A stretch of 64,000 nt of DNA, taken from contig CAJINV010000002.1 of NCBI GenBank assembly GCA_905178155.1, positions 303,713 to 367,712 on the forward strand, given 5' to 3'. The position numbers and the translations under genes were made by a program. The notes under the pieces were generated by a model that was not told the DNA's origin, did not search any database, and worked only from the letters and a program-made list of their open reading frames with translations. The stretch comes from Amoebophrya sp. A120 (Eukaryota; Protista; Dinoflagellata). Positions 1 through 64,000 of the stretch are shown here, one piece after another. Position 1 is the first letter of the stretch. The number at the start of each line of letters is the position of its first letter.

Positions 1-1186
1 AACGGGCACCGCAGCTGTTTCCCTGGCTCCGTCCTTCTCCTCCACTCGTTCCAGCAGGGGCATCAAAGTGAAAGCCCCCCCCTCCCCACATCGAAACGAA
101 ATTTCTGACGCTGGAATTGCGCACACAAATCAAATTTGTCTCTGCAGGCCCATATCGTGCCAATGTAGAGAGGTTTTGGCCTAGGCAGTTGGCAGGAGGA
201 ACGTCTATGCTGTAGGACCAACAGCATTGCAAATCGCCGGCATAATCGGGCGGAGCCCGTGCCGTCGCTTTCTTGCAAGACAGACCCGATTTGTGGTCAC
301 AAATCAGCATTACAAATTCTCTGAGGCGTTCCTTTTCGATAAGGGGAGGGGGGATTTTTCCTCACGATAAGGAGTCGCAGAACCTTTTTGCGCAACACGG
401 GGTCTATCCTGTGCAAAAGTATCGCACTCGTAGTAATTGCGGTTATGCATTACAAATCTTTTTCCTAAGGTCAATCAGCATAACAAATTCCATTTCTCAC
501 GCTGAGGAAATTTGTAATGCAATTCATACTAGTACGATGCTTTTGCAATTCATAGGGTCAATTTTACTTCGGCGATGTTGGATTCCCCACAGATGGGACA
601 GCAATTATCCTGCTGTATGGGAGAGCACAACAACTCCCCCTCTCCCTCATTTGTCAATCCAAAATTATAACAAATCCAAGCGCTCCTGTTGCGTGGTGCC
701 GTAGTTTGCATGACAGATTCCGGAAGGAGCCGAAACAGGTGGACTACATTCGGCACGACACACATTTACCATGAATTGGCTCCACCTCCACGCGCTGTGC
801 TTGTGTTTGTATTTACTGTTCATGCCAACATACACATGAGGGGGAAAAGGGGGGGTTGTTACTCTCATATCCTGTTCTTGCCCATCAGCTGCTGCGGGCG
901 CAGTTGTACTAGCCACAACAGGTGCAGCGGTTGCGGCGGGTGGAGCAGCAGAAGGATTGTCGGGCGGGTTTACTATTGCGCTGGACGAAGCACCTCTAGC
1001 TCTAGGTGGACTACGATTGATATTATTACCACGACGATGGCGCGGTGGCTGCAGAGCGGAGACAAAACTACCAAAGCAATATTGGTCTTCGAACAACCCG
1101 ACGTGCTGGAAGAGAGTCTGCACGCACAAGAGGCCGGCGACGCAAAGACGACCGAAGTTGATGCTCTTGCAGTGGTGCGCCGTCAT
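1..1186 (-). CDS. RING-finger protein with N-terminal hydrophobic (signal-like) segment; 3 introner introns; runs off the window edge
   Basis: Exons 1186-870, 610-555, 399-370, 55-1 (each element plus one TSD removed) read MTAHHCKSINFGRLCVAGLLC...QEQEDNCCPICGESNIAEVKLTPCCAKRFCDSCWNEWRRRTEPGKQLRCP, which has RING-type Cys spacing. Confidence 0.85.
61..369. mobile_element. Introner element family D (TIR core AAAATCCCCCTCCCC)
   Basis: CATC...GATA ends, TIR, flanks AGGGG/AGGAG; removal restores the RING frame. Confidence 0.85.
405..554. mobile_element. Introner element family B (TIR core TGCAAAAGTATCG(C/T)ACTCGTA)
   Basis: TAT...ATA ends, perfect TSD GGGTC. Confidence 0.9.
616..869. mobile_element. 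Introner element family H (TIR core CAACTCCCCCTCNCCTCATT)
   Basis: TAT...ATA ends, TSD TGCTG/TCCTG; related to 29331-29551. Confidence 0.8.
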
Positions 1187-1990
1187 GATTGCAGTTTTGG
1201 GCTTAGGAAATGATGATTTTAAAAAATAAAAATGATGATTTAGGAAATGATGATTTAAGCTTCGGAAATAAACTTGTCCGATTTTTGCAAGGAGTACAGT
1301 AAAGCTCTGCTTCAGGATTTAGTTCGTACTTGTAGTTGTAGAGGTATCTTTTATTTGTAACGCAGGGTAAGCACGTAGTAACGACTTCAAAAAAAACGAC
1401 TGTTCCGGTTACTGCATTTGTTGGTCCAAGAATGGAGTGGCTTAAATGTATTTTCTTTGGCAGAAACAATTTGCCGAAGGTGCGGCAGCACATTGATCCT
1501 TATTCTTAAACCGACGACCCGTCGACAAAAATTGATTCCGCAAAATTTGCATGGATGCACACTGAGTGGTCGTGGGGCTAAAGCTGACTAGTGTCCCAAA
1601 ACTTTCATTCATCATCATCATCATCATCAAAATTTGCATGGATCTTTCTCCTGGTAGGACAACATTTCTTGCACAAGTATGGCGTTCTCAAACGTTACAT
1701 TCTCAACTGTTACATGGTTTGTCATGCAAAATTGCCTTCAGAAGCGACACCATCAAGCTGCTTCGCATGACAAATTCTCAGAGGGCCAAGTAGGGTGATA
1801 ATGGGCGCCAAGTCTGTCATGCAAGACGCGCAAGATCGCCCCTATCACTTTTGCCATTCTTGCATCACGAATTCATGTAACAGTTGAGAATGTAACGTTT
1901 GAGAACGCCATAACAAGGTAATTTGGATCGCGGTTTCGGGTGTGGATCTTCATCTTGCTTTGGTTTCTGTTCTTGACTCCTCACTAGTAC
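1050..1990. repeat. Segmental paralog block (gene 5' end plus upstream), similar to 5640-6230 and in part 2660-2850
   Basis: Colinear shared sequence, e.g. CACAAGAGGCCGGC.ACGCAAAG, AAAATTTGCATGGATC, GTGGATCTTCATCTT. Confidence 0.75.
1678..1912. mobile_element. Introner element family F
   Basis: Perfect 39-bp TIR TATGGCGTTCTCAAACGTTACATTCTCAACTGTTACATG; perfect TSD ACAAG; empty paralogous site near 6161. Confidence 0.95.
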
Positions 1991-2005
1991 CGCCGCCCGC
2001 GGTAG

Positions 2006-2264
2006 TATCAAATGTCTGGGTCTGGAAGAATACAACTCGTGATGCTACTTTTGGAATCTACATAAAAACTGTATTGCATGAACAGCAAAAGAGGTGTAAT
2101 TTGTGCTACGCGGAGAGGGCATTTCTCATGCGGTATGAGCATCAGAAAGCCCTCGCAAAATCTCTGATGCTAGGGCATGCATCACAGACCTCATCATGGG
2201 TCATGCAAAATGTGCATGACAAACTCCTGCATTCTTCCAGGCCCAGACATTTTTGCAATCCATA
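2006..2264. mobile_element. Introner element family A (TIR core ATGTCTGGGTCTGGAA)
   Basis: TAT...ATA ends, perfect TSD GGTAG. Confidence 0.9.
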
Positions 2265-4561: not shown

Positions 4562-5749
4562 CTAAACGTATATGGTTTCGGTGCCTCCAAAACTCACGCG
4601 GCGCTCAGTCGGGCTCCCCTGGCTGCCTACAGCTCTGGTCTGCTGACTGCCAGATCCGCCGCCACTTCGGCGCGCAGTCTGGCTCCACCGGGTTGCGGCG
4701 GTCGTTTTCGGGGCGGCCCGGGCTGCGCGCGGGTTTGGCATTGCGTTGGAACCTGCACTAGGACGACTATGGCCGGGGCTTCCTGCTCGCTGCCCACTTG
4801 CTTTCCCGACGGGTCGCACAGGATGAACACCAGCCGCAGCACGCCGCGTCCCCGTTACGGCGGTCGTTTTCGGGGCGGCTGGGGCAGTTTTACCAGCCGC
4901 AGCACGCCACGCCCCCGTTGCGGCGGTCGTTTTCGGGGCGGCTGGGGCAGTTTTACCAGCCGCAGCAAGCCGCGTCCCCGTTGCGGCGGTCGTTTTCGGG
5001 GCGGCTGGTGCAGTTTTACCAGCCGCAGCAAGCCGCGTCCTCGTTACGGCGGTCGTTTTCGGGGCGGCTGGGGCAGTTTTACCAGCCGCAGCACGCCGCG
5101 TCCGCGTTGCGGCGATCGGTTTCGGGGCGGCAGGGGCAGTTTTACCAGCCGCAGCAGGCCGCGTCATCGTTGCGGCGGTCGTTTTCGGGGCGGCTGGGGA
5201 AGTTTTACCAGCCACAGCAGGCCGCGTCCTCGTTGCGGCGGTCGTTTTCGGGGCGGCTGCGGCAGTTTTACCAGCCGCAGCAGGCCGCGTCCTCGTTGCG
5301 GCGGTCGTTTTCGGGCCGGCTGTGCGCTGGTTTGTCATCGTAAGAAAAAGATGTCTCAGTCTCAGCTTGTAATGCGGAACTTCCTTGAGACCGTTTTTCT
5401 TTTTTGATGTAGACATGCTCACCTCCATGCAAGAGAGTCGCCTTTCATGATAGGGGTTTATTTCCCTTGCTGTTTGAAGCATCAGAAATTTTTTGCTTCT
5501 TGTTTCGCAAATTTGTAAGTGGTGTTGAGTCAACATCTGCATCAAAGGTTTGGGACTGAGACAGATTTTTCTTACGATATTTGTGGCTGTGGAAGCTGTA
5601 CTAGGACAACTGGGACTCGGATTCAAAGCGAAAACAGCAGCACCACCAAATAAATCTTGTCCGAGCAGCGCGACGCGGAGGCAACTACACAAGAGGCCGG
5701 CAACGCAAAGGCGACCAAGATTGGGGTTCTTTTTGTAGTGGTGCGCCAT
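4562..5749 (-). CDS. Putative secreted basic Ala/Thr/Pro-rich tandem-repeat protein; N-terminus paralogous to the gene at 1186
   Basis: MAHHYKKNPNLGRLCVAGLLC hydrophobic N-terminus; about eight 21-aa repeats; contains the in-frame family I element. Confidence 0.7.
   Translation of the reverse strand: MAHHYKKNPNLGRLCVAGLLCSCLRVALLGQDLFGGAAVFALNPSPSCPSTASTATNIVRKICLSPKPLMQMLTQHHLQICETRSKKFLMLQTAREINPYHERRLSCMEVSMSTSKKKNGLKEVPHYKLRLRHLFLTMTNQRTAGPKTTAATRTRPAAAGKTAAAAPKTTAATRTRPAVAGKTSPAAPKTTAATMTRPAAAGKTAPAAPKPIAATRTRRAAAGKTAPAAPKTTAVTRTRLAAAGKTAPAAPKTTAATGTRLAAAGKTAPAAPKTTAATGAWRAAAGKTAPAAPKTTAVTGTRRAAAGVHPVRPVGKASGQRAGSPGHSRPSAGSNAMPNPRAARAAPKTTAATRWSQTARRSGGGSGSQQTRAVGSQGSPTERRVSFGGTETIYV
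4828..5315. repeat. 63-bp coding tandem repeat, about 8 copies
   Basis: CGGTCGTTTT recurs at 4861, 4924, 4987 and onward; encodes AAAGKTAPAAPKTTAATRTRP-like units. Confidence 0.95.
5336..5579. mobile_element. Introner element family I (TIR (C/T)ATCGTAAGAAAAANNTGTCTCAGTC)
   Basis: About 27-bp TIR, perfect TSD TTTGT. Confidence 0.9.
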
Positions 5750-7810: not shown

Positions 7811-9853
7811 TCACTGCTCTGCTCCCTCCTGCTCATCACCCTGCGCCGAGCGTACCAGTCTGGCCGCTTCGGCTAGCAGTCTGCGTGCTTCGGTATACAG
7901 TCTGTCTGCTTCGTCGAACAGCTGCTCCCGGCGGACTAGATCCGCACGTGGTATTTCCATTTCGGCTAGCACCAGTCTGCTTCCTTCTTCCCCCATGTTA
8001 TCAAATGTAAAAGTGTCTGGGTCTGGAAGGATGCGACTTGTCATGCTAAATCTGAAGCATGCAAAAATCTGTGTTGCATGATTACCAAAAGTCGTCCAGT
8101 TTTGCCCAAGTCGGGAGGGAGGCTCTCATGCAGGATATTAGGCATGAGCAGAGAGATCCTCGCACAGAATCTGTCATCGACTAGGTCCTGCATTCCAGAC
8201 CTCATGGGTCATGGAATAAAAGCTGCATGACAAATCTGACAATCTTCCAGACCCAGACATTTTTACAATCCATACATTGCGCTTGCTCGCTCCGTCAGTC
8301 TGATTCCTTCCCTTAATGACAACTCCTGCGGGGACAACTGCACAACCTCCCGGCACACTGGGCAGCTTGGTTCCGTCGTATCCTGCGTAAAATTGGATTC
8401 CCACACCATCCATAGTCGACTAGAAGTCGAGAAGATCCGTATTACAAGAAGCTGTTGAAGAGAGGTTTTGCTTTCGGGTCGTGTTGCGCATCACAAAATT
8501 GCATCGGGCAAGTAAAAATCGGCGTCAGCTAGTGTAGGTGCGAAGCTGTCACAAACGGACTTTCTGATCTCGACGAGAAGAATATGACAACATGACATGA
8601 TTCCCAAAGATTTACATTTAACACCTTCTTGTATGCTTACAAATAAACGTTCCTTCTGGAAGTGCGGTTTTTCATGCGACACACTGACCATCCATCATCA
8701 TCATCATCGTGATTGACTTATCTCCTCTCCTAGCATGCTGCAAATTTGCGTGACCGTGAACATGGTGTGGGTCCTCGTTCGTTCTTTTCAGCTGCATATA
8801 ATTCACATGTCGATAACCACTGGCCGATGCAGCCGGTACAAAACTTGTGACCGCAGGAGCTTAGGGCCTTTTCGTCGCGTATTTGTTCCAGACAGATTGG
8901 ACAGTTGTCACGGTTGGGCGAGCCGTCCTGTGCTATGGCGTTCTCAAATGTTGCATTCTCAACTGTTACATAAATTTGTGATGCAAGAGCTGCAACAGTC
9001 AAAGGTGCAAGCTTGCAGCTTTCGCATCACAGATTTGGCACGGATTCAGATGGTGTTTAGCCGTTCGGAGATTTGTCATGCGAAGCAGCTTGATCATCTA
9101 CCGGATCAAGGTAGTTTTGCATGACAAATTAATGTAACAGTTGAGAATCATGTAACATTTGAAAACGCCATATGTACATCGCCAGCACTGTGGCCGGACA
9201 GGTGGGCGACGTCGTGTGCATCGCCAGCCCCACGTATGCAAGAAAAAAACTGTGTAGGTGTAACTCTGTAATGCAGAACATGTAACAGAGTTACATCTGT
9301 GATGCCAGAAAGCCACGAGGCCTCTTTTCATGTGTGTTTTCCCTTACATGCCACGCATGACAGGTTTTCTCTGTCATGTAGAGCAAACTTGTGATGCTGT
9401 TAGCCAAAGAAAGTTACACTAACACAGTTTTTTTCTTGGATACCACGACTACGACTACGACTACGAGGACGGACCTGCAAGGCGAAAACAGGAAAGAAAT
9501 CTCTGTGACGTAGAAACATGTCTGGGTCTGGAAGGAACTTGTGATACTACAGTATGGAGGATGAGTCTGGTGCAGCTTTCAAGTGCAAGCAAGCACGACA
9601 AATTTTCTTGACGCTGTCTGAAGATGCGTAGCACGCATCACAAACTGCGTCTTTGCCTGACAAAAAAGTAACACCTTTGCTGGCTATGCAACACAGTTTG
9701 CTCAGGAATGCTAGACAGGCAACACAAGTTTCACTTTTCCAGACCCAGACATATTTGCATTTGATACTCTACGGCGACGTACAAGAATGCGGTCTGCAGG
9801 CACAAGAGAGCGGCAACACAAAAACGAGAGGAGCTGCTACGAAGGCGCGCCAT
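7811..9853 (-). CDS. RING-HC protein with N-terminal hydrophobic segment and C-terminal coiled coil; at least 5 introner introns (8415-8815 unresolved)
   Basis: Spliced: MARLRSSSSRFCVAALLCLQTAFLYVAV..FFPVFALQVRPRSRSRSRGAGDAH...DNCPICLEQIRDEKALSSCGHKFCTGCIGQW...PSCPVCREVV...ASAMGEEGSRL...EAARLVRSAQGDEQEGAEQ*. Confidence 0.75.
7999..8274. mobile_element. Introner element family A
   Basis: TAT...ATA ends, TIR, TSD CATGT/CATTG; removal joins the CPVCR exon to the MGEEG exon. Confidence 0.85.
8440..8635. mobile_element. Degenerate family C-like element
   Basis: TATTACAAGAA...TTCTTGTATG ends with GCATCACAA-type motifs; boundaries uncertain. Confidence 0.45.
8934..9172. mobile_element. Introner element family F
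   Basis: TIR TATGGCGTT..CAACTGTTACAT; TSD TGTGC/TGTAC. Confidence 0.9.
9235..9442. mobile_element. Introner element family C (TIR core CAAGAAAAAAACTGTGTNNGTGTAACT)
   Basis: TAT...ATA ends, perfect TSD CCACG. Confidence 0.92.
9504..9766. mobile_element. Introner element family A (left end eroded)
   Basis: ATGTCTGGGTCTGGAA...TTCCAGACCCAGACATATTTGCATTTGATA. Confidence 0.8.
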
Positions 9854-12908: not shown

Positions 12909-15900
12909 TTACACCGAAGATGCGGCAGCATTTGTTGTACAATTAGAGTCTTCATCTTCTGCTCCGTCAACACTTTGCCCTCTTCTACTTCCGCGACAGT
13001 GAAGATCTTCTTCGGGACAATTTTGGTGCGTTTCTGTCCCGTGACTTTGCTCTTCTTCGCCCGAAGCGGCCAAGTTGGCTCGGACAAATGTTCCTGCCGC
13101 GGCCGAACAAGATGCGGATAGAAGTTGTACTCCTTCTGTGCTACTACAGCTGTACTGCTCGCCATCAGCTTGGTACCTGGACATCAAGTTTTCGAGTTTA
13201 TTCTGTGTAAAAACGTCCCCACCCCAGAGTCAAGATGGGCGACATCTCGCAACACAAATCCAGAAGCTTTGGGAGTCACGCATGACAAGTTTCTCTCTGC
13301 ATTGTAGTGCAGTCTAGCAAGTGCAGCCGCATCACAAAGCCATCTACTTATCCTGTTGACAGCATCAGAAATTCCAAAACACGATTGAAAATGCATGCGC
13401 ATTGCAAATCTTCCTACAAGTACAATTGCAAATCTGCATGACAACTCTGGGGTGGGGACGATGTTTTTGCATTTGATAGAGTTCGTTAAGTTGCCACTTT
13501 TCGTATTCCGTGTGCGCATGACTTGTATCCACTTCCTCCGGCGGCGGGTATAATCCGCCGACCACCCGCGCCCGCTGCAACAGCGCGGCATCCATGTCGG
13601 GATTAGCAGTTGTAGGGGCCCGACTCAATAAAACTCCCGATGTATGTAAAGGTTGTTGCACTGTGATGACGTACTCGGTCTGCTTCAAATTTAAGGGGCG
13701 GCTGGAGTAAAAATGCTTTGGAGCTTTTATGTGGGACGAGGCGGGCAATGTTGATGTAGTTCGAGTTCCCCCGACGGACAGCGGTTTAATATTAATATTT
13801 CTCGTCGCGCTATTTGGGGTCCACATCGTGTTCTTTTTCTTTTCCTGGTGATAGTACTCGAGATGTTGGGCCTCTTTAGAAGTACAACTCTTGTGCAGCT
13901 GCGGTCCCTTGTTATTCAGACCAGCTCCGGCGCGTCGTGCAGCTGCAGTCGTTCCTCGGCCGTCCTCGTCGGAGAACATCAAGCTACCTGGCACATCAAC
14001 ACCCTCGGAGCTGTGGTCCCGCGAAGATGACGAAGAAGAAGATGGTGGACCTTGTTCTCGAGAAGTAGAAGTAGTACGGGGATTTGTATAGTGGACCACG
14101 CTAGAAGTACGCTGAAGATGCTGATGATCACCCAGCTGCGTGGCGTTTGCGAAGGCGGCTTGTGGTACGTCGCGGTGACCCGCCCTAGTATTTGTTCTCG
14201 TAGAAGGAGCAGGCGCAGGAGCTCTTGGTCCTTTATTCACGAAGCGCCGCCTCTTCACATCGAAAATTCTTGACTTGGAAGCGCTCTCCTGTCTTTTCCT
14301 TCTCTTCTTCAAAACAGCCCGGAGAAGCAGCACGGCCACGAATATTCCCGCGAGAAACAGAACAGCACCGATTACAACAAAAGCGTAGAATATCAACTGT
14401 AAAAATGTCTGTGTCTGGAGAAATCCAACTTGTCATGCTGATTTTGGATCCTAAAAAAATCTGTATTGCATGAGCAGCAATGAGAGTCCAAGTTTTGCTA
14501 CACGTAAAGAGCACTTGTCATGCGGTATAGGCATCAGGAAGCCCTCACAAAATCTGTGATGCTAAGGCATGCATCACAGACATCAGGAGTCATGCAAAAT
14601 GTGCATGACAAACCTGGCAATCTTCCAGACCCAGACATTTTTGCATTTCATATAGAAAAGGGCTTCCTGCCTCCGCTCCTCCGCTGCTATGGCGTTCTGA
14701 AATCTCTGCGAAGTGTCCTGCATCGCTATCGTGAGCAAAAACGTCCCCACACCAGAGTCAAGATGGGAAATCTGCTAGACACATCAGCCAGCTTTGGTTG
14801 TTTCGCATGACAAGTTTGCCCTCATAGTGTGATCCTGTTTAGCTAGTGCTAGTTTTAGCAGCATCAGAGATCTAGCGTTTCATGCTGATTGGAGCATGAC
14901 AGATTCTAAAACACGACTAGAAAAGGCTTCTGATGGAGCTCCGCATGAGAAACATTTTCAGCATGCAGATTAGCATGACAACTCTGGGGTGGGGACGTTT
15001 TTACTCAGAATAATCGCGTTGCGGTTTTGCGCCACCGCTAAGTGGCAAATGTCGTCGTCATCGCGGAGTTTGTGATGCAAAAACCGGAGGGCACGCCCGC
15101 AGTGGCACACCGCGGCAATCGCCAGCTCGCGGTTTTGTAGAAGCATACTGGACGATAGTGTCGTGGTAGAAGTACTTCTTCTGCCAAGGAGGTGGCGGGA
15201 CACGACGACCTCGTTGTTGATGTGTAGTTGCTTGTGAGAAGATAGTAAGAGCCGTTGCTCCTCGACGTCCCCTGCTTGATTTGCTTCTGCATGATGGGCA
15301 AGAAATAAACTTGTAGTCCTCGTCTTTCCAGCAGCATTGTGTGTTTTCGCTCGTGCTGTTGCCAACGGTTGATGTCCTCTCTGATCGGGGGAGGAAGTAG
15401 TCCATCTCGTCGTGTGAGCATGTTCATCATCACCTATTCCCCCACCACGACACGTTGTTTCTTTCACGAAGGACAACACCCGGCAGTCCTCAGACCGGTC
15501 ATTTTGCACCGCTAGTGTCACGATTTCCAAGGAGCTTTTTCTCAACCTTTCCGACGCGTATCAAATGCAAAAATGTCTGGGTCTGGAAAGTTGTGATGCT
15601 AAAATGTGCATGATGGAAACACTTCCGAATGCAGACCAGCATGACAACTTTCCGGAGCACTTTCCAATAGGCAGCCCGCATGAGAAACTGCGTTTTTGCA
15701 TGACAAAAATGGCTGCGGCTTTTGTCGGTTATGCAATACAGATTTTCCAGGAATGCAAAGCTAGCATGACAAGTTCCAACTTTCCAGACCCAGACATTTT
15801 TGCAGTTGATAACGCGAACTCCAATGCCATACCCGTTTGCTGAACCGCGACGGAGACCACTTCTTCATCGTCAGCGAAATTTAGTGGCTGGTCGCCGGCG

Positions 15901-18900
15901 TGCGCCTGCGCGTTGTTGTTCCTATCATTGCGGAAGATTGCTTTGGCTTCCTCTCTGTAGTGTCGTGGGTTCATCTCCTGTTCGTGTAGTCCCCTGTCCT
16001 GCTCCTGCCGCAGACGAGAACCATGATGTAGATTTTCCACTACAAACTGCAAGCTCAGGCCGTTTTGCCGGACTGCAGCCAGCACCAGGTCCCGGTTGCT
16101 TTCCTTCAGTTATGCATTGCAAATATGTCTGGGTCTGGAAGACTGCATTAAATCTGTGTTGCATGAACGCCAAAAGCTGCCCAGTTCTTGCTAGGCAAAA
16201 GGCGGCTTTCTCATGCGGAGCGGCATGAGGAAGGCCTCGCAAAATCTGTGATGCTTCTGTGTGCATTCCAGACCATGTGCGTGATTCGCGAGATGCATCA
16301 CAAATCTCCCAACCTTTCAGACCCAGACATATTTGCATTTGATATCAGTCTGGCACTCGCAAATTCCAGCATCAAGCCCTCTTTCCCCACGGCCAGCAGG
16401 GCGATCTCCAAAGAGTCGCGACAGTGAACCGAACTGAACTGGAACGCTCTTGGGTTATTCCCCACTTATCAACTGTAAAAGTGGCTGGGTCTGGAAGATT
16501 GCAAGATTTGTCATGCTAGTCTGGCATGGCTCTGCACTCTGTATTCCGTGGCCACGAACAGCCTCTTTCGCCTGTCATGCAAAAACGCACTTTCTCATGC
16601 GGAATGCGCAGCAAAGAAGCACGAAAAAAACTTGTCATGCTTGGCTGCGCATTACAGCTCACCTATTGCAATTGCTCGCTGACTTGCATTACAAATTTCC
16701 AGACCCAGACATTTTTGCATTTGATACCACTGCGTGTTTCACAATGTTGTAGTCGAGTACCGCTTATGGATTGCAAAAGTATCATTGTAGTAGAAATCGC
16801 ATGACAAATTCCCTCAGCATGAGATGAAACGAAATTTGTAATGCGGATTCACCTGAAGAAGGACATTTGTGATGCATGGCTGCGATTAATCTACAAGTGC
16901 AATGCTTTTGCAGTGGATACCGCTTCTTGCGGGAAATCGCGCAGATCGGTGGAGGACTTCATCGCCTGGTTGAGAAAATAGCTGTAATTCTGCATGTTGC
17001 TCTCGTTGTTCCCGCAAAGGCGGTGGTCCGGGACGATGGAAGATGTTGAGCTTGGTTCAGGGTCAGGTCCTGCTGCTCGCGGGGGTCTGTGGTCACTAGG
17101 GGCGCCAATATTGTGGTGGTTAGTCGTTGTACGTGTTGTAGTACCTCCATGATGTCCGCCACTGCTCACGACAATGGGAGGGCTGCTCGAAGACCCTGGC
17201 TGCATCGTCGCCGTGGCGACGACATTGTTAACAGGCGGGTCCCCGTCGCGCTGCGTAGTTGGTGGCAGGTGAGGCCGCGCAGCTCCCTGTGGAGGAGGTG
17301 CAGCTTTCTGCTGTGGTTGCGGTGCTTGCTTTGGCTGAGGGCAAGGTGGCGCTTGCTTTGGCTGTGGATGGCAAGGTGGCTTCGGCTGTGGCGAATGCTT
17401 CGGCGGCGGCGGTTGTTGTGGCTCCGGCGCTGGTGGCTTTGCAGGCGGCGGGGTGGAAGCCGAAGCAGCTGCACCACTACCACCCGGGCACGGTGGAATT
17501 GTGCCAGCACCTGTCTGCGGCGGAGGCAGCGGTGGCCTAGCAGGAGGAGGAGGTGGAATTATGTGTGCATTTACAACTCCCGGCACAACTACAGCAGCTC
17601 CTGGCGCTGCAACCTGTGATGCAGCAGCAACAGCAGCAGCAGTAGTACCACAACATGCTCGCAACTCTCCAACAACACAAAAATTCTGTTCCAGTCGAGC
17701 GATATCATGGGGGGTAAGTCTATTACTCCCTTCATCCACAATTGTTCCTGGTCCTATTGACGCTCCGCGGGCCTCTCCACAATTCTGTTCCGCGAGAGAG
17801 GTAGAAGTAGATGAGCCTTGTCCCGCGGATGTTGAACCAACATCACCATTTTCACCTCCTGCGGATGTTGTTGACAATTCGTGATGCTGGTGGTTATGTG
17901 AATGTGATATCAGCTCCTGCGAAGTAGATTGCTCTACTTCACCTCCTCCTGCCGCGGCGCCGTCCCCCACTAAAAATGGTTCCTGCAGCTGTGCTGTTCC
18001 ACCGGTTGATGTCTTCGCGGCGGAAGGGGCTGCAGACGCACGACACGATGACGCAGCAGCAGAATGTTCTTGGCTACTACCAGAATGTTCTTGGCTACTA
18101 CCAGAATTAGGTCCTTGGATACTACCAGGAGCAGCGCCAGGTGGTGTTGTACCACCACGACCCACGAAGATGTTCTTGTCACCACCAGCAGGAGCTGCTG
18201 CGTCACTGCTGCTACTTCCACTAGGAGAACGAGAAATGGTGAAGTTGCAGTTCCTGGAAAAACTCCATGGTCGTGATGTAGTTGCAGCTCCTGGAGGATG
18301 AACCACGCTTGTTCTACTTCGCACTGGTGAGCAGTTGTCCATGGGTCGATCGACAAATAAGGGAACAGTAGAGTCGACTACGTTGTCCCTGTCCGCCGGC
18401 CAGCTCCATGTTGTCGTATCCGGCTCTGCCGGCTCATCTGCGGGATCGTACTTGTATGGAACAATCCCCACTTCTGTGACCGGATTTGCCCTCCGTCCAT
18501 CCGACTGTGGGCGCATCCACCAGAGCTGCTGTTTCGGTGTTGCCGTTGTGATTGAAGGGCTATCTCCTGCTTCCGCATCTTGAAGTTCCACTGGAGAACG
18601 AGCTGCGGTACGAGGACCAGTGGCAGGTCGTTCCGGGGGACTACAAGAGGGGTCGGTTCCATCTTTTGAAGCTGCCCACTCGAGGACGCGGCACGTTGTA
18701 ACATCTTTTGAATCTTCCCGGGTTGCAACGTCATCTTCGACCAGCTTTTGAAGCGCACTCGAGGAGGGCAGGCAGTAGATACAACCGGGCAGTACCTCTT
18801 CCTGAAGGACGCAGGGAGCTCCTCCTCCTGCAGATGGTCGTTCTAGAGCCGCAGGAGCTGCGTCCTGCTCCGGGGGAGCTGGCGAGCATTTTTTCTGCTT

Positions 18901-44892: not shown

Positions 44893-45152
44893 TATGCATT
44901 GCAAATATGTCTGGGTCTGGAAAAAAGCAACTTGTCATGGTAAATCTGAAGCATGGAAAAATCTGTGTTGCATGAGGGCCAAAAGCTGTCCACTTTTGAC
45001 CAAGTTGGAAGGGAGTTTCTCATGCAGGATAGGCATGGCAGAGACCTCGCAGAATCTGTCATGCTAAGTCCCAGACTCAGACCTCATGGGTCATGGAAAA
45101 TCTGCATGACAAGTCTGCATTCTTTGAGACCCAGACATATTTGCCTTTGATA
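44893..45152. mobile_element. Introner element family A
   Basis: Perfect TSD TCCTC. Confidence 0.92.
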
Positions 45153-45231: not shown

Positions 45232-45397
45232 TATCCTGTGCAAAAGTATCCGATACTCGTAGTAATTATCGCAGTCATGCATTACAAGTTTCGCTTTCGT
45301 TCTCAAGTTCAATCCGCGTTACAAATTTCATTTCTCATGCTGAGGAAATTTGTCATGCGATTTATACCTAGTGGGCGCGATGCTTTTGCATTTCATA
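45232..45397. mobile_element. Introner element family B (copy at +7754)
   Basis: TSD CAAAA/GAAAA. Confidence 0.9.
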
Positions 45398-45426: not shown

Positions 45427-45571
45427 TATGCAGTGCAAAAGTATCGTACTCGTATAAATGCATTACAAATTTCCTCAGCATGACAAATAAAATTTGTGAT
45501 GCTGATTTACCTTAAGAACAAGATTTGTAATGCATGATTGCAATACGAGTACGATGCTTTTGCAGTTCATA
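45427..45571. mobile_element. Introner element family B (copy at +7754)
   Basis: Perfect TSD GGTAA. Confidence 0.92.
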
Positions 45572-45620: not shown

Positions 45621-45832
45621 TATCCAAGAAAAAAACGTTGTTAGAAGTGTAAATTTGTGATGCGCAACATGCAAAAAGATTGCGTCTGTCATGCTTGGCA
45701 TGCGTCGTAGGGTTCAGTAAAGGACGTTTTCACGTAGTATCTGCGCATGACAGGTTTTTGCTGTCATGCCAGACGAATTTGTAATGCTGTTCCTCCAAAA
45801 AAGTAACACCTACAACGTTTTCTTCTTGGATA
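45621..45832. mobile_element. Introner element family C (copy at +7754)
   Basis: Perfect TSD CTCCT. Confidence 0.9.
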
Positions 45833-49808: not shown

Positions 49809-52696
49809 CTACGGACGCACCGAGTCCGGTGCTGGTGCAGCGGACGAAGGATCATTCGTGAGTTGCAAATTAAGTTCTTGTGCAGCAGACAAGAACCGCC
49901 CGCCAGAGGTGGATGCGGGTCCTGGTCGTCCCACGAGGTACAGCTTGGCCAGGTCCGTATCGAAAGGAAAAGACCCCCCTTTCCATATCAAAACGGAATT
50001 TCTGACGCTGGATCTGTGTACACAAATCAGCCTTGTATTGCAGGAAGGCACTGCGGCCAGTTCCCCAGGCTAGGTAGGGGCGTATGGGTCTAGTTGCTCA
50101 GCATGTCAAACGGCTCCCCTTTAGGCCCAACAACATGACAAATCGCTTTCATAATGGGGCGGAAGCTTCTGCCCTTGTCTTCTTGCAAGACAAATGCGAT
50201 TTGTGACCTCAAATCAGCAACACAAATTTTCGGAAACATACCTTTTCAATATGGGGAGGGGGAGTTTTTCCTTTCAATATCCCGCTGCTCGTGAATCCCG
50301 GATCTCCGCGAGTTCATTTGTTGCAAATTTATCGCGATTATCAAATCTAAATTTGTCTGGGTCTGGAAGAATGCAAACTTCTCATGCATTTTTTCCATGC
50401 CGATGCCCCATGAGGTTTGAAATGCGAGACGTAGCATGACAGGTTCTGCGACGTCTCACTCTATCATGCCTATCCTGCATGACAGACTGCCTCTAAACTT
50501 GTTCAAAAGTGGACAGCTTTTGGTAGTCATGCAACACAAATTTGTGTACGATCCAGACTTAGCATGACAAGTTCGTGTCCTCGTCCCAGACCCAGACATA
50601 TTTGCAATGCATAGCGATCCGCTTCAGTGATGTGCTGCCCGGGTTGTCCTGGTGCTGCTGCTGGAGTCCAGTATGCATTGCAAAAGTACACCCGTATATT
50701 AGTGGCACACGCATTACAAGCAGCTTATTTCGATGTCCCAAAAGGAGAGATGGATTTTTTTGTACTGCTGATTTATGATCACTTAGGACGAGCAGATCTG
50801 TCATGCACGCGACTGCAAAAATTATATTATGTAAGTACAAGTGAACGATAGTACTTTTGCACATGATATCCAACGAAGGTGGTATGCAACAGGCGGAGCA
50901 TTTTTACTGCAAGAAAGCCTTTCTCTACTACTCCGAGCAAGAGACTCGTCCTTCAGAGCTTCTTTTGTCAGTGTCTTGTTGGTCAGCAACGGCATCTTTT
51001 GTCTCGACCATTCGGATCGCCTACCGTGTTCAAGATTCTCGGAGCTCCTGCCCGATGAAGGTGGAGCGGCCCCAGTCCCTGTCCCTGGTGCAGTTGTTCC
51101 GTCGCCGCTAGAAGCAGCCTTGTCGTCCTTCACGGTGCAGCTGTCACTCTGCTTGTGCCGCTTCCTCGGCGGCGCTCCTACCACATCCATGGACACCTTT
51201 CCAGTTCCATGCCACGTAACATCTTTAACATAGGGATACTCTTTTTCGCCGGGAAGCTCCTTTTTATCACGATCTTCCGCTGAAGCAAGCAGTGGTACTC
51301 CACCGCCTGGCGAGGAGGCCACGCGGCTGGCCGTCGAACCAGCGGAATCAGCTGCTGCTGCACCCACGTATCAACTGTAAAAATGTCTGGGTCTGGAAAC
51401 TTGTAATGCTGGGCGGCGTATCATGAGGAGGCTACAAGTGCTGGCTCAGCATGACAAGTTTCTGAGCTTCTTAGTGTTGCCTATTCTGCATGACAGACTG
51501 CGTTTCTGCATGACAGAAAAATGGGAGCTTTGGGTAATGTGCAGGACAAATTTAAGAATCATGTGAGACAAGCATGACAAGCTTGCATTCTTCCAGACCC
51601 AGACATTTTTGCAATCCATACCACGGCGGAACTGCTGCACCCAAGCACCCACGGCGGAATCTGCTTTTCCGGGGCGTACTTGTCACGCAGAAGAATGGTA
51701 TGCACTGCAAAAGTATCGCACTCGTAGTAACTGCAGTCATGCATTTTTCTATTTCTTTTTATAGGTAAATCCGCATATACAAGAAATTTTATTTCTCGTC
51801 ACACTGAGGATGAAATTTTTTGTATACGAATTCATTATACGAGTATAGAAACAGATACTTTTGCAATGCATAAATGGCCGCCTTTTGCTTCTCCTTGCCA
51901 CATTTGGTAAGGGTTTCCGCTGCGTCTTTTAGAAGGTTCGTCACATTGTCCTTCACGCCCAGTTCTTTCAACATGGCTACCAAGGCGAGCTTTGTCTCCA
52001 CGGCGGAACTGCTGCATATGGCGTTCTCAAATTATCGGTTAGTACCTTCTCAACTGTTACATGAATTTGTAATGCAAGAATGCCAATGAAATTAAAAGTG
52101 CAAGGGTGAAGTAGAGCGCGGCTTTTGCATTACAGGTTCCGCACAGATTTAGATGCTGTTTGGCCATTTGGAAATTTGTCATGCGATAGTAAGCTTGATG
52201 ATAGTGATACTGATGACAGTTTTGCATGACAAATTCATGTAACAGTTGAGAAGGTAACCGATTTGAGAGCCCCATACTGCACCCAAAAAAACACGGCGGT
52301 ATCTGGCGGTTCCCCGGCAGACGAATGGTATGCAGTGCAAAAGCATCGTACTGCTCGTAGTAAAAATTGGCAATGATGCATTTTTATTTTATAGGTAAAT
52401 CTAAATCCGCATTACAAATTTTACTTCTCACGCTGAGGAAATAATTTGTAAAAATGCGACGAGTATTATAGATACTTTTGTATAATGCATAAAAGGTATT
52501 GAGAGGAAAAATCCCCCTCCCCATATCGAAAAAGTATCTTTCCGAAAATTTGCATTGCTGATTTGAGGTCACAAATCACATTTGTCTCGTAAGAGGACAA
52601 GGGTAGAAGCTTCCGCCCCATTATGGAAGCGATTTGTCATGCTGTTGGGCCTAAAGGTCAGCCGTTTGCAATGCTGAACAACTAGACCCATACGCC
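49809..52696 (-). CDS. First (partial) copy of the 3' part of the helical-repeat gene
   Basis: Essentially identical to 57563-60450; splices in frame through the B, F, B, A, B, A, D elements to TAG at 49809. Confidence 0.6.
49958..50279. mobile_element. Introner element family D (copy at +7754)
   Basis: TAT...ATA ends, TSD GTCCG/TCCCG. Confidence 0.88.
50339..50613. mobile_element. Introner element family A (copy at +7754)
   Basis: Perfect TSD GCGAT. Confidence 0.9.
50672..50868. mobile_element. Introner element family B, diverged (copy at +7754)
   Basis: TSD TCCAG/TCCAA. Confidence 0.85.
51369..51620. mobile_element. Introner element family A (copy at +7754)
   Basis: Perfect TSD CCACG. 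Confidence 0.92.
51699..51872. mobile_element. Introner element family B (copy at +7754)
   Basis: Perfect TSD AATGG. Confidence 0.9.
52017..52276. mobile_element. Introner element family F (copy at +7754)
   Basis: Perfect TSD CTGCA. Confidence 0.9.
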
Positions 52697-57562: not shown

Positions 57563-60500
57563 CTACGGACGCACCGAGTCCGGTGCTGGTGCAGCGGACG
57601 AAGGATCATTCGTGAGTTGCAAATTAAGTTCTTGTGCAGCAGACAAGAACCGCCCGCCAGAGGTGGATGCGGGTCCTGGTCGTCCCACGAGGTACAGCTT
57701 GGCCAGGTCCGTATCGAAAGGAAAAGACCCCCCTTTCCATATCAAAACGGAATTTCTGACGCTGGATCTGTGTACACAAATCAGCCTTGTATTGCAGGAA
57801 GGCACTGCGGCCAGTTCCCCAGGCTAGGTAGGGGCGTATGGGTCTAGTTGCTCAGCATGTCAAACGGCTCCCCTTTAGGCCCAACAACATGACAAATCGC
57901 TTTCATAATGGGGCGGAAGCTTCTGCCCTTGTCTTCTTGCAAGACAAATGTGATTTGTGACCTCAAATCAGCAACACAAATTTTCGGAAACATACCTTTT
58001 CAATATGGGGAGGGGGAGTTTTTCCTTTCAATATCCCGCTGCTCGTGAATCCCGGATCTCCGCGAGTTCATTTGTTGCAAATTTATCGCGATTATCAAAT
58101 CTAAATTTGTCTGGGTCTGGAAGAATGCAAACTTCTCATGCATTTTTTCCATGCCGATGCCCCATGAGGTTTGAAATGCGAGACGTAGCATGACAGGTTC
58201 TGCGACGTCTCACTCTATCATGCCTATCCTGCATGACAGACTGCCTCTAAACTTGTTCAAAAGTGGACAGCTTTTGGTAGTCATGCAACACAAATTTGTG
58301 TACGATCCAGACTTAGCATGACAAGTTCGTGTCCTCGTCCCAGACCCAGACATATTTGCAATGCATAGCGATCCGCTTCAGTGATGTGCTGCCCGGGTTG
58401 TCCTGGTGCTGCTGCTGGAGTCCAGTATGCATTGCAAAAGTACACCCGTATATTAGTGGCACACGCATTACAAGCAGCTTATTTCGATGTCCCAAAAGGA
58501 GAGATGGATTTTTTTGTACTGCTGATTTATGATCACTTAGGACGAGCAGATCTGTCATGCACGCGACTGCAAAAATTATATTATGTAAGTACAAGTGAAC
58601 GATAGTACTTTTGCACATGATATCCAACGAAGGTGGTATGCAACAGGCGGAGCATTTTTACTGCAAGAAAGCCTTTCTCTACTACTCCGAGCAAGAGACT
58701 CGTCCTTCAGAGCTTCTTTTGTCAGTGTCTTGTTGGTCAGCAACGGCATCTTTTGTCTCGACCATTCGGATCGCCTACCGTGTTCAAGATTCTCGGAGCT
58801 CCTGCCCGATGAAGGTGGAGCGGCCCCAGTCCCTGTCCCTGGTGCAGTTGTTCCGTCGCCGCTAGAAGCAGCCTTGTCGTCCTTCACGGTGCAGCTGTCA
58901 CTCTGCTTGTGCCGCTTCCTCGGCGGCGCTCCTACCACATCCATGGACACCTTTCCAGTTCCATGCCACGTAACATCTTTAACATAGGGATACTCTTTTT
59001 CGCCGGGAAGCTCCTTTTTATCACGATCTTCCGCTGAAGCAAGCAGTGGTACTCCACCGCCTGGCGAGGAGGCCACGCGGCTGGCCGTCGAACCAGCGGA
59101 ATCAGCTGCTGCTGCACCCACGTATCAACTGTAAAAATGTCTGGGTCTGGAAACTTGTAATGCTGGGCGGCGTATCATGAGGAGGCTACAAGTGCTGGCT
59201 CAGCATGACAAGTTTCTGAGCTTCTTAGTGTTGCCTATTCTGCATGACAGACTGCGTTTCTGCATGACAGAAAAATGGGAGCTTTGGGTAATGTGCAGGA
59301 CAAATTTAAGAATCATGTGAGACAAGCATGACAAGCTTGCATTCTTCCAGACCCAGACATTTTTGCAATCCATACCACGGCGGAACTGCTGCACCCAAGC
59401 ACCCACGGCGGAATCTGCTTTTCCGGGGCGTACTTGTCACGCAGAAGAATGGTATGCACTGCAAAAGTATCGCACTCGTAGTAACTGCAGTCATGCATTT
59501 TTCTATTTCTTTTTATAGGTAAATCCGCATATACAAGAAATTTTATTTCTCGTCACACTGAGGATGAAATTTTTTGTATACGAATTCATTATACGAGTAT
59601 AGAAACAGATACTTTTGCAATGCATAAATGGCCGCCTTTTGCTTCTCCTTGCCACATTTGGTAAGGGTTTCCGCTGCGTCTTTTAGAAGGTTCGTCACAT
59701 TGTCCTTCACGCCCAGTTCTTTCAACATGGCTACCAAGGCGAGCTTTGTCTCCACGGCGGAACTGCTGCATATGGCGTTCTCAAATTATCGGTTAGTACC
59801 TTCTCAACTGTTACATGAATTTGTAATGCAAGAATGCCAATGAAATTAAAAGTGCAAGGGTGAAGTAGAGCGCGGCTTTTGCATTACAGGTTCCGCACAG
59901 ATTTAGATGCTGTTTGGCCATTTGGAAATTTGTCATGCGATAGTAAGCTTGATGATAGTGATACTGATGACAGTTTTGCATGACAAATTCATGTAACAGT
60001 TGAGAAGGTAACCGATTTGAGAGCCCCATACTGCACCCAAAAAAACACGGCGGTATCTGGCGGTTCCCCGGCAGACGAATGGTATGCAGTGCAAAAGCAT
60101 CGTACTGCTCGTAGTAAAAATTGGCAATGATGCATTTTTATTTTATAGGTAAATCTAAATCCGCATTACAAATTTTACTTCTCACGCTGAGGAAATAATT
60201 TGTAAAAATGCGACGAGTATTATAGATACTTTTGTATAATGCATAAAAGGTATTGAGAGGAAAAATCCCCCTCCCCATATCGAAAAAGTATCTTTCCGAA
60301 AATTTGCATTGCTGATTTGAGGTCACAAATCACATTTGTCTCGTAAGAGGACAAGGGTAGAAGCTTCCGCCCCATTATGGAAGCGATTTGTCATGCTGTT
60401 GGGCCTAAAGGTCAGCCGTTTGCAATGCTGAACAACTAGACCCATACGCCACTCGCTAGCCTGGGGATCTGGTCGCAATGCCTTCCTGCAATACAAATCT

Positions 60501-63500
60501 GATTTGTGTACGCAAATCCAGCATCACAGATTTCCTTTTTGATATGGGGAGGGGGGATTTTTCCTTTTCATAAAAGGCCATCAGTTGCTTCTTCTTCCCA
60601 CATTTGGCAAAAATAAGACCATCTCGGGTCGTCATATGTTCCTTCACGCCCAGTTCTTTCAACATGGCTGCGAGCTCAGCATCCTCGTCGGGATCATTTG
60701 ATGTCTCCTCGTCTGGCTGTACGACCGGTTGTTCAGGACGAGAAGTACAAGCCGATAGTACAGTGCCGACGTCCACGACCGGGGCCTCATGTTCGCTCGT
60801 GCTCTTGTCCTCGTCCTTCACTGTAGAAGTTTCACCCTGCTTATTGTTTCCCACCTGCTTCTTGATCTCGATGTAATTGGCCACACACTCCTTTATCGCG
60901 CTGTCATCCATGTTGGCGTTTTTCAGTTGCATTTCCCTCAACAAGGCTACCAAGGCGAGCATATCCTGTGCAGAAGCATCGCACTCGTATTGCAGTCATG
61001 CATTACAAATGCAAATCCTTTTGTTAAGGTAAATCCGCATTAGAAATTTTATTTCTCATGCTGAGGAAATTTGTAATGCATTTATACGAATACGATATTT
61101 TTGCAGTTCATAGACCACGCCGGGATCATTCGTCTCCTCGTCGGCCACGACCGGGGGCTCGCGTTCGTTCGTGCTCTTGTCCTCGTCCTTCACTAATGAT
61201 GTATCACCCTGCTTAATAGTCGTCCCCAGCTGCGTTTCCACTTCCCCAGCTGGTGCAGCCCCCTGGATCGTGGTTTCGGTAGCCGAGAGGACGGCGTTCT
61301 GTTGTGGGTTGTGGCCTTGAGGACCGCCTTCTTGCTCAGCAGCTCCTGCATGAACATCACCTGCATGATCTTCAATGCGGTTGAAGCGGTCCCAGTCAAT
61401 CTGCTCAGACGGATCTGCCGCATATTTGTCACGTAAGGTTTTCAGCGCATTGGCCTTGTTATGAATTGCAAAAGTATCGCACTCGTATAAATGCATTAAA
61501 TTTCCTCAGCATGAGAAATAAAATTTGTCAGGCGGATTTACCTTTTAACGCAAGACTTGCATTTATCATTTATACGAGTATCAGATAAGTACTTTAACTT
61601 TTGCACAGGATAATTGTGCATGCCGTCCGTATTCAGCAACGTGGTGGCCATGAGACTCTTATCCTGTGAAAAAAGTGTTACAGTTACACTCTCTGATGGA
61701 AGACAAGCAAGACAGACCACCTCTGTCATGCACGAAATGCTTTCCAGCCTCATTTTGTTCGTGTTTATTTCGATTATAGTCTGCGCATCTTCACAGGTTT
61801 TCTTTGCAACCATGTCGAGCAACTTTGTGATGCAGAAACTCCAACAAATGTGTAACTACTGCAACACTTTTTTCCTGTGATACATCTTCATCGCGTCGTC
61901 GTCCATGTTGGCGTTTTTCAATTTCAGGGTCTTCTATCCAATGCAAAAATCCCTGGATGTCTGGAAGAATGCAACTTGTGATGCTGCCTTTGGATGCCTA
62001 AAAAATTTGTGTTGCATGAGCAGGAAAAGGATTCTAATTTTTGCTACGCGGAGAGGGCGTCTGTCATGCGGATTAGGCATCAAGAATCCCTCAAAATAAA
62101 ACCTGTGATGCTAGGGCATGCATAAAAGAGGACATCATGGGTGGTCATGCAAACCGTGCATGACTACAGGTCTCAGAATCTTCCAGACCCAGACATTTTT
62201 GCATTTGATATCTTCAGCATTATGAACTGCAAAAGTATCGCACTCGTATAAATGCATTACAAATTTCTTCAGCATGAGAAATAAAATTTGTAGTGCGAAT
62301 TTGCATTAACAAAAGGATTTGTAATGCATGATTGCAATACGATACTTTTGCACAGGATAAGCATGCACACCAAGTCCGCCACGTTCTTCTCAAACCGTGA
62401 CGATATCGCAAGGAAAAACTGTTTCACGGTAAACTTGTGATGCAGAAAATGGAACGCAGAACAATTTGTCTTGCTACACCTGCATAGAACATTGGAGCTT
62501 CAACCGTGTTTTCCCCTGTGGGGAAAACGCAGGGGAAAACGCGCATGGCAGATTTTCTGTGTCATGTGTAACAAATAACTTGTGATGCTGATGTTGCAAA
62601 ATCATCACAGTGAAGCATTTTTCGTGGGATAGACGACCAGGCGCTTTTATTTCCCGACTTTAATGCAGCTGTTTCAGCGGGACGAGTTGTTGTATCAGAA
62701 GAAGATGACCCGCCTACGGGGCCTTCTTCTAGTACATCTCCCTTTTGTGGTTTCAGATCGGCGTTCTTCTGTTCGTCTTCGTCGCGCTTATTTTCCTGTG
62801 GTACAACTACTAGCGAGCGTTGAAGATGACCATGGTCTTTTGCTTGAGCAGTACTGCTCTTAAGAACTCTTGCGTGCTGTTGACCACCTGCACGACCTGC
62901 AATGCGGTCAAAGAGGTCCCAATTAATCTGCTTAGACGGATCTGCCGCAAATTTGCGGTGTAAGGCTCTCAGCGCGTCGTATTTGTCCATGCCCTTGCTC
63001 CACAACAATTGGGACTTCACGTGCAATATGCACTGCAAAAGCTGATGTGTCTTCGCACTCGTACAATAGATTTTGTGCAATCAACTTCAACTTGGTGCAA
63101 CACAACTTTCATTCCTCAAGGCTAAAGGCACATCTGCACTTACAAATTTCGTTTCTGATGCTAAAAAAGTTTGATGTCATGCAAAGATTTGTACGTAAAG
63201 TACGACTACGATGCTTTTGCAAAGGATATGCTGCTTCAAAATTACGTCGCTCATGCTATCAAATGCGAATATATATGTCTGGATCTGGAAAGTTGTGATG
63301 CTAAAATGTGCCGGACGAAAACGCTTCCTCAGGATGCAGGAGAGCATGACAAGTTTGCAGAGCGCTTCCTCACGACTCGCGGCGGCCCGCAGGAGAAAGT
63401 AGGTTTTTGTATGACACAAGAAGAGGCTGTGACTTTATATGTGGGTCATGCAGCAATACAGATCTCACAGGACGACTGTAAGACCAGCACTACAAGTTCC

Positions 63501-64000
63501 ACCAACTTTTCAGACCCAGATCGATATTTGCAACGCATACATGCCGGCATCCTTCAGCTTCATCATCTTTAGCATCGAGGTCAAATGCTTCACATCCTGC
63601 TCAAAGCGTGCCGTGGGGTCGTCGTTCTTGCCCGTAGTTTCATCGGCGGGACCACGAGGAGAGGCGGCGTTCTGTTCGTCTTCCGATCGGCGCTTCTCCT
63701 GTTGTACTTCTACTCGCGAGCCTTCTTGACCACGTGCTACTTTTTCTTGAGCAGTACTGCTCGCATTAAGAACTCTTGTGTGCTGTTGACCACCTGCACG
63801 ACCTGCAATGCGGTCAAAGAGGTCCCAGTCAATCTGCTCAGACGGATCTGCCGCAAATCTGGTGTGTAAGGCTCTCAGCACCTCGTATTTGTCCATGCCC
63901 TTGCTCCACAACAATTGGGACTTCACGTGCAATATGCACTGCAAAAGCTGATGTATCTACTTCGCATTCGTACAATAAATTTTGTGCAATCAACTTCAAC
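57563..64000 (-). CDS. Helical-repeat protein of unknown family (5' end outside window); at least 16 introner introns
   Basis: Continuous frame after splicing; recurring module RFE..V..L..MLK..KLK.A.M.D...K.....L....GM.K..AL..L..K.AADPS.QI.WD.F.RI. Confidence 0.8.
60083..60245. mobile_element. Introner element family B abutting a D element (also at 52329-52491)
   Basis: Flanks AATGG/AAAGG. Confidence 0.88.
60251..60572. mobile_element. Introner element family D inserted into the TSD of the B element (truncated copy at 52497-52696)
   Basis: Perfect TSD AAAGG, whose left copy is also the right TSD of B. Confidence 0.9.
60962..61112. mobile_element. Introner element family B
   Basis: TSD GAGCA/GACCA. 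Confidence 0.9.
61460..61612. mobile_element. Introner element family B
   Basis: TSD CTTGT/ATTGT. Confidence 0.9.
61660..61882. mobile_element. Introner element family C-like
   Basis: TATCCTGTGAAAAAAGTGTTACAGTTACAC / GTGTAACTACTGCAACACTTTTTTCCTGTGATA; TSD ACTCT/CATCT. Confidence 0.85.
61935..62210. mobile_element. Introner element family A
   Basis: Perfect TSD TCTTC. Confidence 0.9.
62221..62359. mobile_element. Introner element family B
   Basis: Perfect TSD AGCAT. Confidence 0.92.
62404..62631. mobile_element. Degenerate family C-like introner
   Basis: TAT...ATA ends, perfect TSD GACGA; removal joins AWS|SRFEK. Confidence 0.82.
63027..63228. mobile_element. Introner element family B (diverged)
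   Basis: TSD TGCAA/TGCTG; frame restored as KQH|VKSQ. Confidence 0.82.
63257..63539. mobile_element. Introner element family A
   Basis: Perfect TSD CATGC. Confidence 0.9.
63933..64000. mobile_element. Family B introner truncated by the window end, paralogous to 63027
   Basis: Nearly the same sequence, at the same position in the adjacent protein repeat. Confidence 0.8.

Follow-up and report, generated by a model that had tools for sequence, protein, structure and literature searches.

The DNA analysed here, referred to as the window, is a stretch of 64,000 nucleotides from the dinoflagellate Amoebophrya sp. A120 (contig CAJINV010000002.1, positions 303,713 to 367,712), and it contains many elements of 139–407 bp that start with TAT, end with ATA and have inverted ends, with a 5-bp direct repeat on either side (Table 1). 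TAT...ATA termini are present in 345 of 377 full-length copies, and the 5-bp target site duplication (TSD) is perfect in 271 of the 377 and matches at 4 of 5 bases in 70 further copies. In most families the end reads TAT, seven variable bases and at least three A, while F, G and H have a weaker A run. The elements have the properties of miniature inverted-repeat transposable elements: terminal inverted repeats (TIRs), a fixed-length TSD, short size, repeated occurrence and no coding capacity. They fit the published A120 introners, which are reported to make up 17% of the genome and whose mobiliser and splicing rule are stated as unknown in the available text of Farhat et al. 2021 (PMC7789003).

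A short internal motif is shared by these elements. The pattern GCATNACA occurs at 180 sites over both strands of the window, and at 178 of them N is G, T or C; the strict motif is GCAT[GTC]ACA. The longer consensus is GCAWBASARWT, and an inverted TGC lies 6–8 bp upstream at 27% of sites. Element calling that was blind to the motif gave 65 calls covering 15.3 of 64 kb, in which 152 of the 178 strict sites fall. A curated list was made after the motif positions were known, with 5 doubtful calls removed, 3 missed elements added and the second copy of a 7,754-bp duplication left out. Its 53 elements (12,507 bp) hold 132 sites (10.6/kb), against 16 sites (0.37/kb) in the 43,734 bp outside, 7 of which sit in partial remnants. 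In 300 dinucleotide shuffles the mean number of sites in elements was 3.2 and the maximum 12, and at least one strict site is found in 49 of the 53 elements.

In order to compare, an independent motif-blind set was taken from 150 loci (409 kb) of assembly JACKZZ01, about half of which is family A because the loci were retrieved by the family-A end pattern. These loci represent other insertions, with a top identity to a window element of 93% and no long overlap with the window. They contain 861 sites in 68.6 kb of elements (12.5/kb), the motif is present in 276 of 283 elements, and the background of 1.4/kb falls to 0.13/kb when partial copies are masked. The original prediction that the motif is common in the elements and scarce elsewhere is thus borne out in both sets, and the sites that it cited are all present, namely four in B 45427, three in F 1678, five in G 30802, four in C 29882, four in E 19541 and three in H 29331. 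Its description of inverted pairs across all families does not hold, as both orientations of the strict motif occur in only 30 of 53 elements and the sites of family E point in one direction. In some family A ends (16111, 27371 and 44893) a motif-like word, GCATTGCAAA, lies inside the TIR at position 4; this GCATTGCAAA may be where the site came from, or it may act as an additional one.

The sites are placed by rule. A site starts 33–54 bp from the end at 472 of 566 ends in the JACKZZ01 set and at 81 of 106 ends in the window, and none lies 16–32 bp from an end among 1,284 interior sites of the former or 210 of the latter. Outward-facing sites cluster at 40–41, 50–52, 60–64 and 70–72 bp from the end, and inward-facing sites at 35–37, 45–47 and 79–81 bp. 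The periodicity of end distances has a p value of about 0.002 over 19 families, a count from which 7 clusters were excluded as probably false or redundant. Pairs of same-direction sites with a spacing of 30–33 bp, or roughly three turns of the helix, are present in 10.1 of the 19 families versus 1.9 by random placement, and in 6.6 of 12 super-groups after homologous families were merged, versus 1.2 at random with a maximum of 5 in 5,000 draws. For example, the spacing is exactly 31 bp in 137 of 232 family-A pairs in the 24–38 range, and the right-end site of family A lies at 41 in 49 copies, at 49–50 in 75 and between these positions in 11. Short repeats at a constrained distance from the ends and from one another, as seen here, are one feature of a subterminal transposase-binding array.

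The families had been described as otherwise non-homologous; descent from one ancestor would make the motif simple homology. The description was not confirmed: 9 of 66 pairs of family consensus sequences align better than motif-preserving shuffles, with F-H-n11, K-G and C-n8 as the clear cases; the weaker links B-K, C-H, H-n8 and E-F were left unmerged. The homologous interiors, together with the TAT-N7-AAAA ends common to all, are what a functionless relic of one ancestral element would leave. However, in the alignments of homologous families the motifs are almost identical and the spacers have diverged. Some families do share ancestry, but homology is not enough to explain the motif. Moreover, motif cores change slowly within families (see below), and the relic has very little chance of being right. 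In K/G and in F/H/n11 the interiors are homologous and the TIRs differ, a pattern suggestive of swapped ends or of rapid TIR turnover with the motif scaffold conserved inside.

Rates of change at motif cores and at interior positions were compared on trees of the 8 largest families. The core rate on internal branches is 0.31 of that of the interior, in agreement with the predicted shared cis signal under selection. As a cleaner clock, we used TSD mismatches because they arise only after insertion; 355 copies of 8 families were included, without exact duplicates and without 7 copies having at most 1 of 5 TSD matches. By this clock the core/interior slope ratio is 1.06 (95% interval 0.68–1.85; n = 355), while the terminal triplet/interior ratio is 0.21 (−0.34 to 1.12), and −0.28 (−1.58 to 0.19) outside family A. 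A tree-free repeat agreed, with slopes of 0.019 (cores), 0.024 (interior) and 0.004 (triplet). Among 158 in-frame copies, the triplet and the inner TIR have slopes significantly lower than that of the interior, and the core slope is not significantly lower. Since cores decay after insertion at about the interior rate while the triplet is held, the motif is important while an element spreads and the ends are important once it has inserted.

Removal of the elements was followed in contigs from four runs of one sample, whose RNA nature is a guess (probably cDNA). All 15 joints listed (of 18) in 52700–64000 and the joint at 13199 omit the element and 5 nt. These 16 joints cover 18 elements, so that each skipped element leaves with exactly one TSD, whether motifs are present or not. 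In the other run type (X5), depth is even across element borders, and raw reads of runs X9 and X10 gave 38 and 9 partial reads, all on repeats. Splicing accounts better than an empty DNA allele does for a cut that combines both copies of a diverged TSD. One register fits all 14 single joints (52981–63540 and 13193–13479): N+TAT...ATA+NNNN on the sense strand, with the cuts 1 nt ahead of TAT and 4 nt past ATA, which is the only option at joints 57707>58035 and 61655>61884. All genes in this set lie on the minus strand, to which the rule applies so far. Boundary dinucleotides in this register are N-T and random; an excess of NT/AN boundary dinucleotides in a table of PMC12130899 fits it, though strands and aligner choices are mixed there and we do not count it as support. 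In this register B 60083 and K 60251 abut with a zero-length exon, and between A 61935 and B 62221 an exon of 5 nt remains; the contigs skip the two pairs correctly. A preference for proto-splice targets (AG|G) was ruled out by the nearly flat TSD composition in 126 oriented copies.

These joints bear on the possibility that the motif is an RNA signal for splicing of non-canonical introns, such as a branch-point-like or splicing-factor site, that works in either orientation by being bidirectional. Many families have a site 40–52 nt from each end on both strands, cores are about half conserved on terminal branches and in close pairs, and U1 was not detected in A120 according to the available text of PMC7789003. 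On the other hand, element 59453, in which none of the four sites is intact, is skipped in a contig that also skips its neighbours, as is a single-site copy; the motif-less source copy could be 51699 or 59453, because the two are near-identical. As TSDs age, cores decay about as fast as the interior, in-frame copies included, and in-frame copies are no better conserved than others (core ratio 0.60 versus 0.47). The would-be branch U and A vary (14% and 8%). Insertion shows no orientation bias (84 sense and 83 antisense among 167 copies with inferred gene strand), not even in B and E, where the word near the 3' end differs with orientation. A splicing signal would be strand-specific, kept after insertion and needed for splicing, and the motif does not fit this description. 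The splicing-factor site proposed originally is thus disfavoured as a required element, and we regard an RNA signal as quite improbable, although the residual conservation on terminal branches may leave room for a helper role in splicing.

Nested RNA stems, in which inverted motif copies would bring the intron ends together, were also proposed. Motifs of F, G, n10 and B do lie in extended inverted arms, with predicted motif–motif pairing of 0.56–0.76, but pairing is only 0.30–0.33 in A and C and 0.06 in E, where the motifs are unable to pair. The variable base of the terminal pair does not covary, since it matches in 46 of 145 copies of family A, where chance predicts 65, and in 27 of 48 copies of family B, where chance predicts 27. 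The recurrent pairs at 31 bp have both sites in one direction and hence cannot pair. Folding and covariation therefore largely refute the stems as a general rule, and we give them hardly any weight.

Of the options in the original prediction, a transposase-type subterminal site fits best with the end distances, the 30–33 bp spacing and the decay after insertion. The motif is probably a double-stranded DNA site for mobilisation, likely bound in trans by an integrase-like DDE transposase, which is a predicted binder. Several protomers would bind the sites on one helix face and pair the two element ends, and cuts at the TA termini would be followed by insertion with a 5-nt stagger. The transposase would be supplied from elsewhere in the genome. 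We propose that the mobilising enzyme needs the array and that, for this reason, only copies with an intact array found new copies. Splicing would be independent of this, with the paired TAT/ATA ends as its signal and a fixed register.

A neighbouring explanation is that the elements depend for their spread on a host protein (an architectural, chromatin or transcription factor) that binds the motif as DNA, with the transposase reading the termini only. The position, spacing and decay data suit any double-stranded DNA binder, the motif is common to families with different inner TIRs, and a host DNA-bending site inside transposon ends has a precedent in integration host factor (IHF; PMC10201428). 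However, outside the elements the motif is near chance (0.13/kb), so there is no visible host use elsewhere in 268 kb, and in Hermes and IS1535 it is the transposase that binds the multiple short repeats near the ends. We consider a host-protein site unlikely.

Several results count against a transposase-bound array. PMC7789003 reports, in its available text, no transposase in A120, which suits a host protein, and Pfam found no transposase or rve domain in the 135 longest of 239 open reading frames (ORFs), which have host domains only. On terminal branches the cores change at 0.50–0.66 of the interior rate, and in the 31 closest pairs (91–95% identity) the core/interior ratio is 0.45. Unsampled spreading lineages can explain this slow change, as can partial selection after insertion. 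The TSD-clock intervals are wide. Loss of all sites is seen in only 3 of 167 in-frame copies, with RNA-like evidence for one, from a single sample. In the 12 merged groups the 10-bp periodicity is weaker, with p = 0.034 for outward sites, uncorrected for scanning periods, and not significant for inward sites. The 31-bp module may have been inherited from one ancestor, though it is held to within 1–2 bp. Finally, the middles of the elements are also full of sites, more than a simple model of end binding needs.

The searches for an encoded partner were made on the same DNA. No autonomous partner with the same ends was found in the window or in the 409 kb of loci, which sample only a small fraction of a genome. 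The loci do contain six long TIR pairs, but these show no sign of autonomy and look mostly like nested or interrupted copies. A regular expression for integrase motifs gave 4 unconvincing matches. Rfam had no match in the window. In viral contigs there were no matches to the family-A end and 29 matches to the 31–33 bp motif pair, with TIR-like calls mostly from one locus. At five loci (L024:632–1465, L050:571–1051, L051:3862–4492, L064:2769–3799 and L073:4017–4988) family-A ends enclose longer inserts or several stacked elements; L073 sits at an RNA polymerase Rpb1 gene.

More tentatively, all TAT...ATA introner families may form one undescribed integrase-like transposon system with two codes, an idea that we put forward as a fair conjecture and do not hold as the expected outcome: a helically spaced GCAWBASAR array would recruit the enzyme, and the terminal TAT/ATA hairpin alone would set the splice sites in a fixed register. 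If true, such a two-code system, with no GT, no AG and no detected U1, would turn insertion anywhere and in either direction into a scarless intron. Literature searches found no description of the motif, and the same seems to be true of its spacing rules, of the fixed register and of the distinction between motif and splice signal. A 10–12 bp site with spacing rules gives a bait for the mobilising protein and a signature for autonomous copies, and once it is set apart from the splice signal, only a few terminal bases and a single register are left to consider for splicing. Both the mobiliser and the splicing rule become testable, the latter with existing genome and RNA-seq data.

Other structures of the window are as follows. 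A near-identical 7,754-bp tandem duplication covers about 44940–52690 and 52700–60450; its junction carries the only N of the window and a K element fused to an A element, and the duplication may be an assembly artefact. At 31377–33728, G-family ends flank a GC-rich insert of about 2 kb that contains tandem repeats of 11 bp and 108 bp, and motif sites are lost in the left part. A 63-bp repeat array with several open frames occupies 4703–5385, and element L interrupts its edge.

Table 1. Elements and host reading frames of the window. Numbers with + or - are strict motif sites and their orientation; "skipped" means left out in the contigs.
Feature	Position	Strand	Details
Family K element	61..369		307+
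Family B element	405..554		TSD GGGTC; 447+, 513-
Family H element, decayed	616..869		708+
Family F element	1678..1912		39-bp perfect TIR, TSD ACAAG; 1720-, 1765+, 1815-
Family A element	2006..2264		2179+, 2214+
Singleton L element	5336..5579		5368-
Family A element	7999..8274		8039-, 8225+
Family F element	8934..9172		8977-, 9024+, 9074-, 9119+
Family C element	9235..9442		9267-, 9298- (31 bp apart), 9355+, 9390-
Family A element, left end decayed	9504..9766		9635+
Host reading frame, 1,657 codons	12912..20244	-	open only after removal of 9 elements and one TSD each
Family E element	13199..13478		13280+, 13329+, 13436+; skipped with one TSD in run X1 contig
Family A element	14391..14652		14431-, 14516-, 14555-, 14571+, 14603+
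Family E element	14727..15012		14805+, 14894+, 14973+
Family A element	15559..15811		15592-, 15639+, 15698+, 15764+
Family A element	16111..16344		16247-, 16295+
Family A element	16467..16726		16509-, 16573-, 16633-, 16649+, 16686+
Family B element	16765..16919		16799+, 16837-, 16868- (last two 31 bp apart)
Family E element	19541..19819		four same-direction sites: 19619+, 19668+, 19701+, 19780+
Family G element	19877..20184		19919-, 20053+, 20087-, 20135+
Family A element	20759..21022		20833-, 20849+
Family B element	22248..22396		22281+, 22316-, 22347-
Family A element	27371..27637		27414-, 27449-
B-like element, decayed, left end uncertain	28273..28448		28313+
Family B element	28635..28784		28671+, 28706-, 28737-
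Family C element	28867..29079		28912+, 28930+, 29009+
Family H element	29331..29551		29364-, 29410+, 29462-
B-like element	29614..29773		29650+, 29682+ (32 bp apart)
Family C element	29882..30090		29927+, 29962-, 30020+, 30051+ (last two 31 bp apart)
Family K element	30419..30740		no strict motif; 6 variant sites by weight matrix
Family G element	30802..31112		30842-, 30946+, 30982+, 31016-, 31064+
G-family ends with GC-rich tandem-repeat insert	31377..33728		5 matrix sites, all within right 260 bp
Family B element	33777..33929		33819+, 33850+ (31 bp apart), 33885-
Family G element, decayed	36945..37292		37156+, 37190-
Singleton M element	43894..44300		44212+
Family A element	44893..45152		45057-, 45104+
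Family B element	45232..45397		45279+, 45351-; duplicate 52986-53151 skipped
Family B element	45427..45571		45460+, 45478+, 45495-, 45526-; duplicate 53181-53325
Family C element	45621..45832		45656-, 45687-, 45745+, 45762-, 45780-; duplicate 53375-53586 skipped
Family K element	49958..50279		variant sites only; duplicate 57712-58033 pins cut register
Family A element	50339..50613		50434+, 50477+, 50562+; duplicate 58093-58367 skipped
B-like element	50672..50868		50711+, 50799-; duplicate 58426-58622 skipped
Family A element	51369..51620		51402-, 51449+, 51488+, 51508+, 51572+; duplicate 59123-59374 skipped
Family B element, first copy	51699..51872		four motif sites all destroyed; TIR and TSD intact
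Family F element	52017..52276		52068-, 52127+, 52177-, 52224+; duplicate 59771-60030 skipped
Family B element	52329..52491		single intact site 52409+; duplicate 60083-60245 skipped
Host reading frame, 897 codons	57566..63956	-	open only after removal of 16 elements and one TSD each
Family B element, motif-less, second copy of 51699	59453..59626		skipped with one TSD in all four RNA-like runs
Family K element adjoining B element 60083	60251..60572		60389-, 60521+
Family B element	60962..61112		61000+, 61072-; skipped
Family B element	61460..61612		no strict motif, 2 variant sites; skipped
Family C element	61660..61882		61724-, 61826-; joint pins cut register
Family A element	61935..62210		61977-, 62062-, 62104-; skipped
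Family B element	62221..62359		62254+, 62320-; skipped
Family C element	62404..62631		62436-, 62581-; skipped
B-like element	63027..63228		63175-
Family A element	63257..63539		63294-, 63344+; skipped

The comparison with known systems begins with the A120 introners themselves. According to the available parts of PMC7789003 and PMC12130899, they share with the present elements the inverted ends of TAT, seven variable bases and an A run, short direct repeats (3–5 nt) at the borders, and removal from transcripts at non-canonical splice sites. Family lengths near 107, 149, 209, 234, 278, 305 and 320 bp in PMC12130899 (Gozashti et al. 2025) match families here, and its A120 family 38 (808 bp) is filed as Ginger, with a 5-bp TSD, TA/TA termini and homology to an integrase region. 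Unlike the fixed register found here, the legend of Fig. 3 in PMC7789003 describes splice sites whose position varies with respect to the hairpin. In the text of these two papers no description was found of an internal motif, of its spacing or of a fixed register, and figures, repositories or subscription papers might hold a description.

Among transposon superfamilies, the available descriptions give IS3EU/GingerRoot TA..TA termini and TDD-4 and TDD-5 (Ginger2/TDD) a 5-bp TSD, both as in the elements here. However, GingerRoot has a 6-bp TSD and TIRs of 100–150 bp, and Ginger1 and Ginger2 begin with TGTNR, not TAT. No subterminal motif turned up in the passages on IS3EU/GingerRoot and Ginger2/TDD. 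With TA termini and a 5-bp TSD, the elements would sit among the integrase-related superfamilies, and neither the GingerRoot nor the Ginger definition applies in full.

The TSD of hAT elements is 8 bp. Subterminal repeats (STRs) of the hAT element Hermes (PMC10368747) resemble the motif in being short repeats in both orientations inside the TIRs, partly quasi-palindromes, and are bound by the transposase; they are 4 bp long and lie directly inside the TIR, in contrast to a 10–12 bp site beyond 33 bp in elements with a 5-bp TSD. IS1535 of the IS607 family (PMC6188088) has several short motifs 20–60 bp from the end in helical phase, and the spacing of TnsB binding sites in Tn7-like CRISPR-associated transposons (CASTs; PMC10201428) follows the helical pitch. 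The transposase of IS607 elements is a serine enzyme and their insertion leaves no TSD, and Tn7-like elements are bacterial multi-gene systems, both unlike the situation here. The ends of IS1535 and of Tn7-like elements therefore offer a working analogy for a helically spaced array, not kinship.

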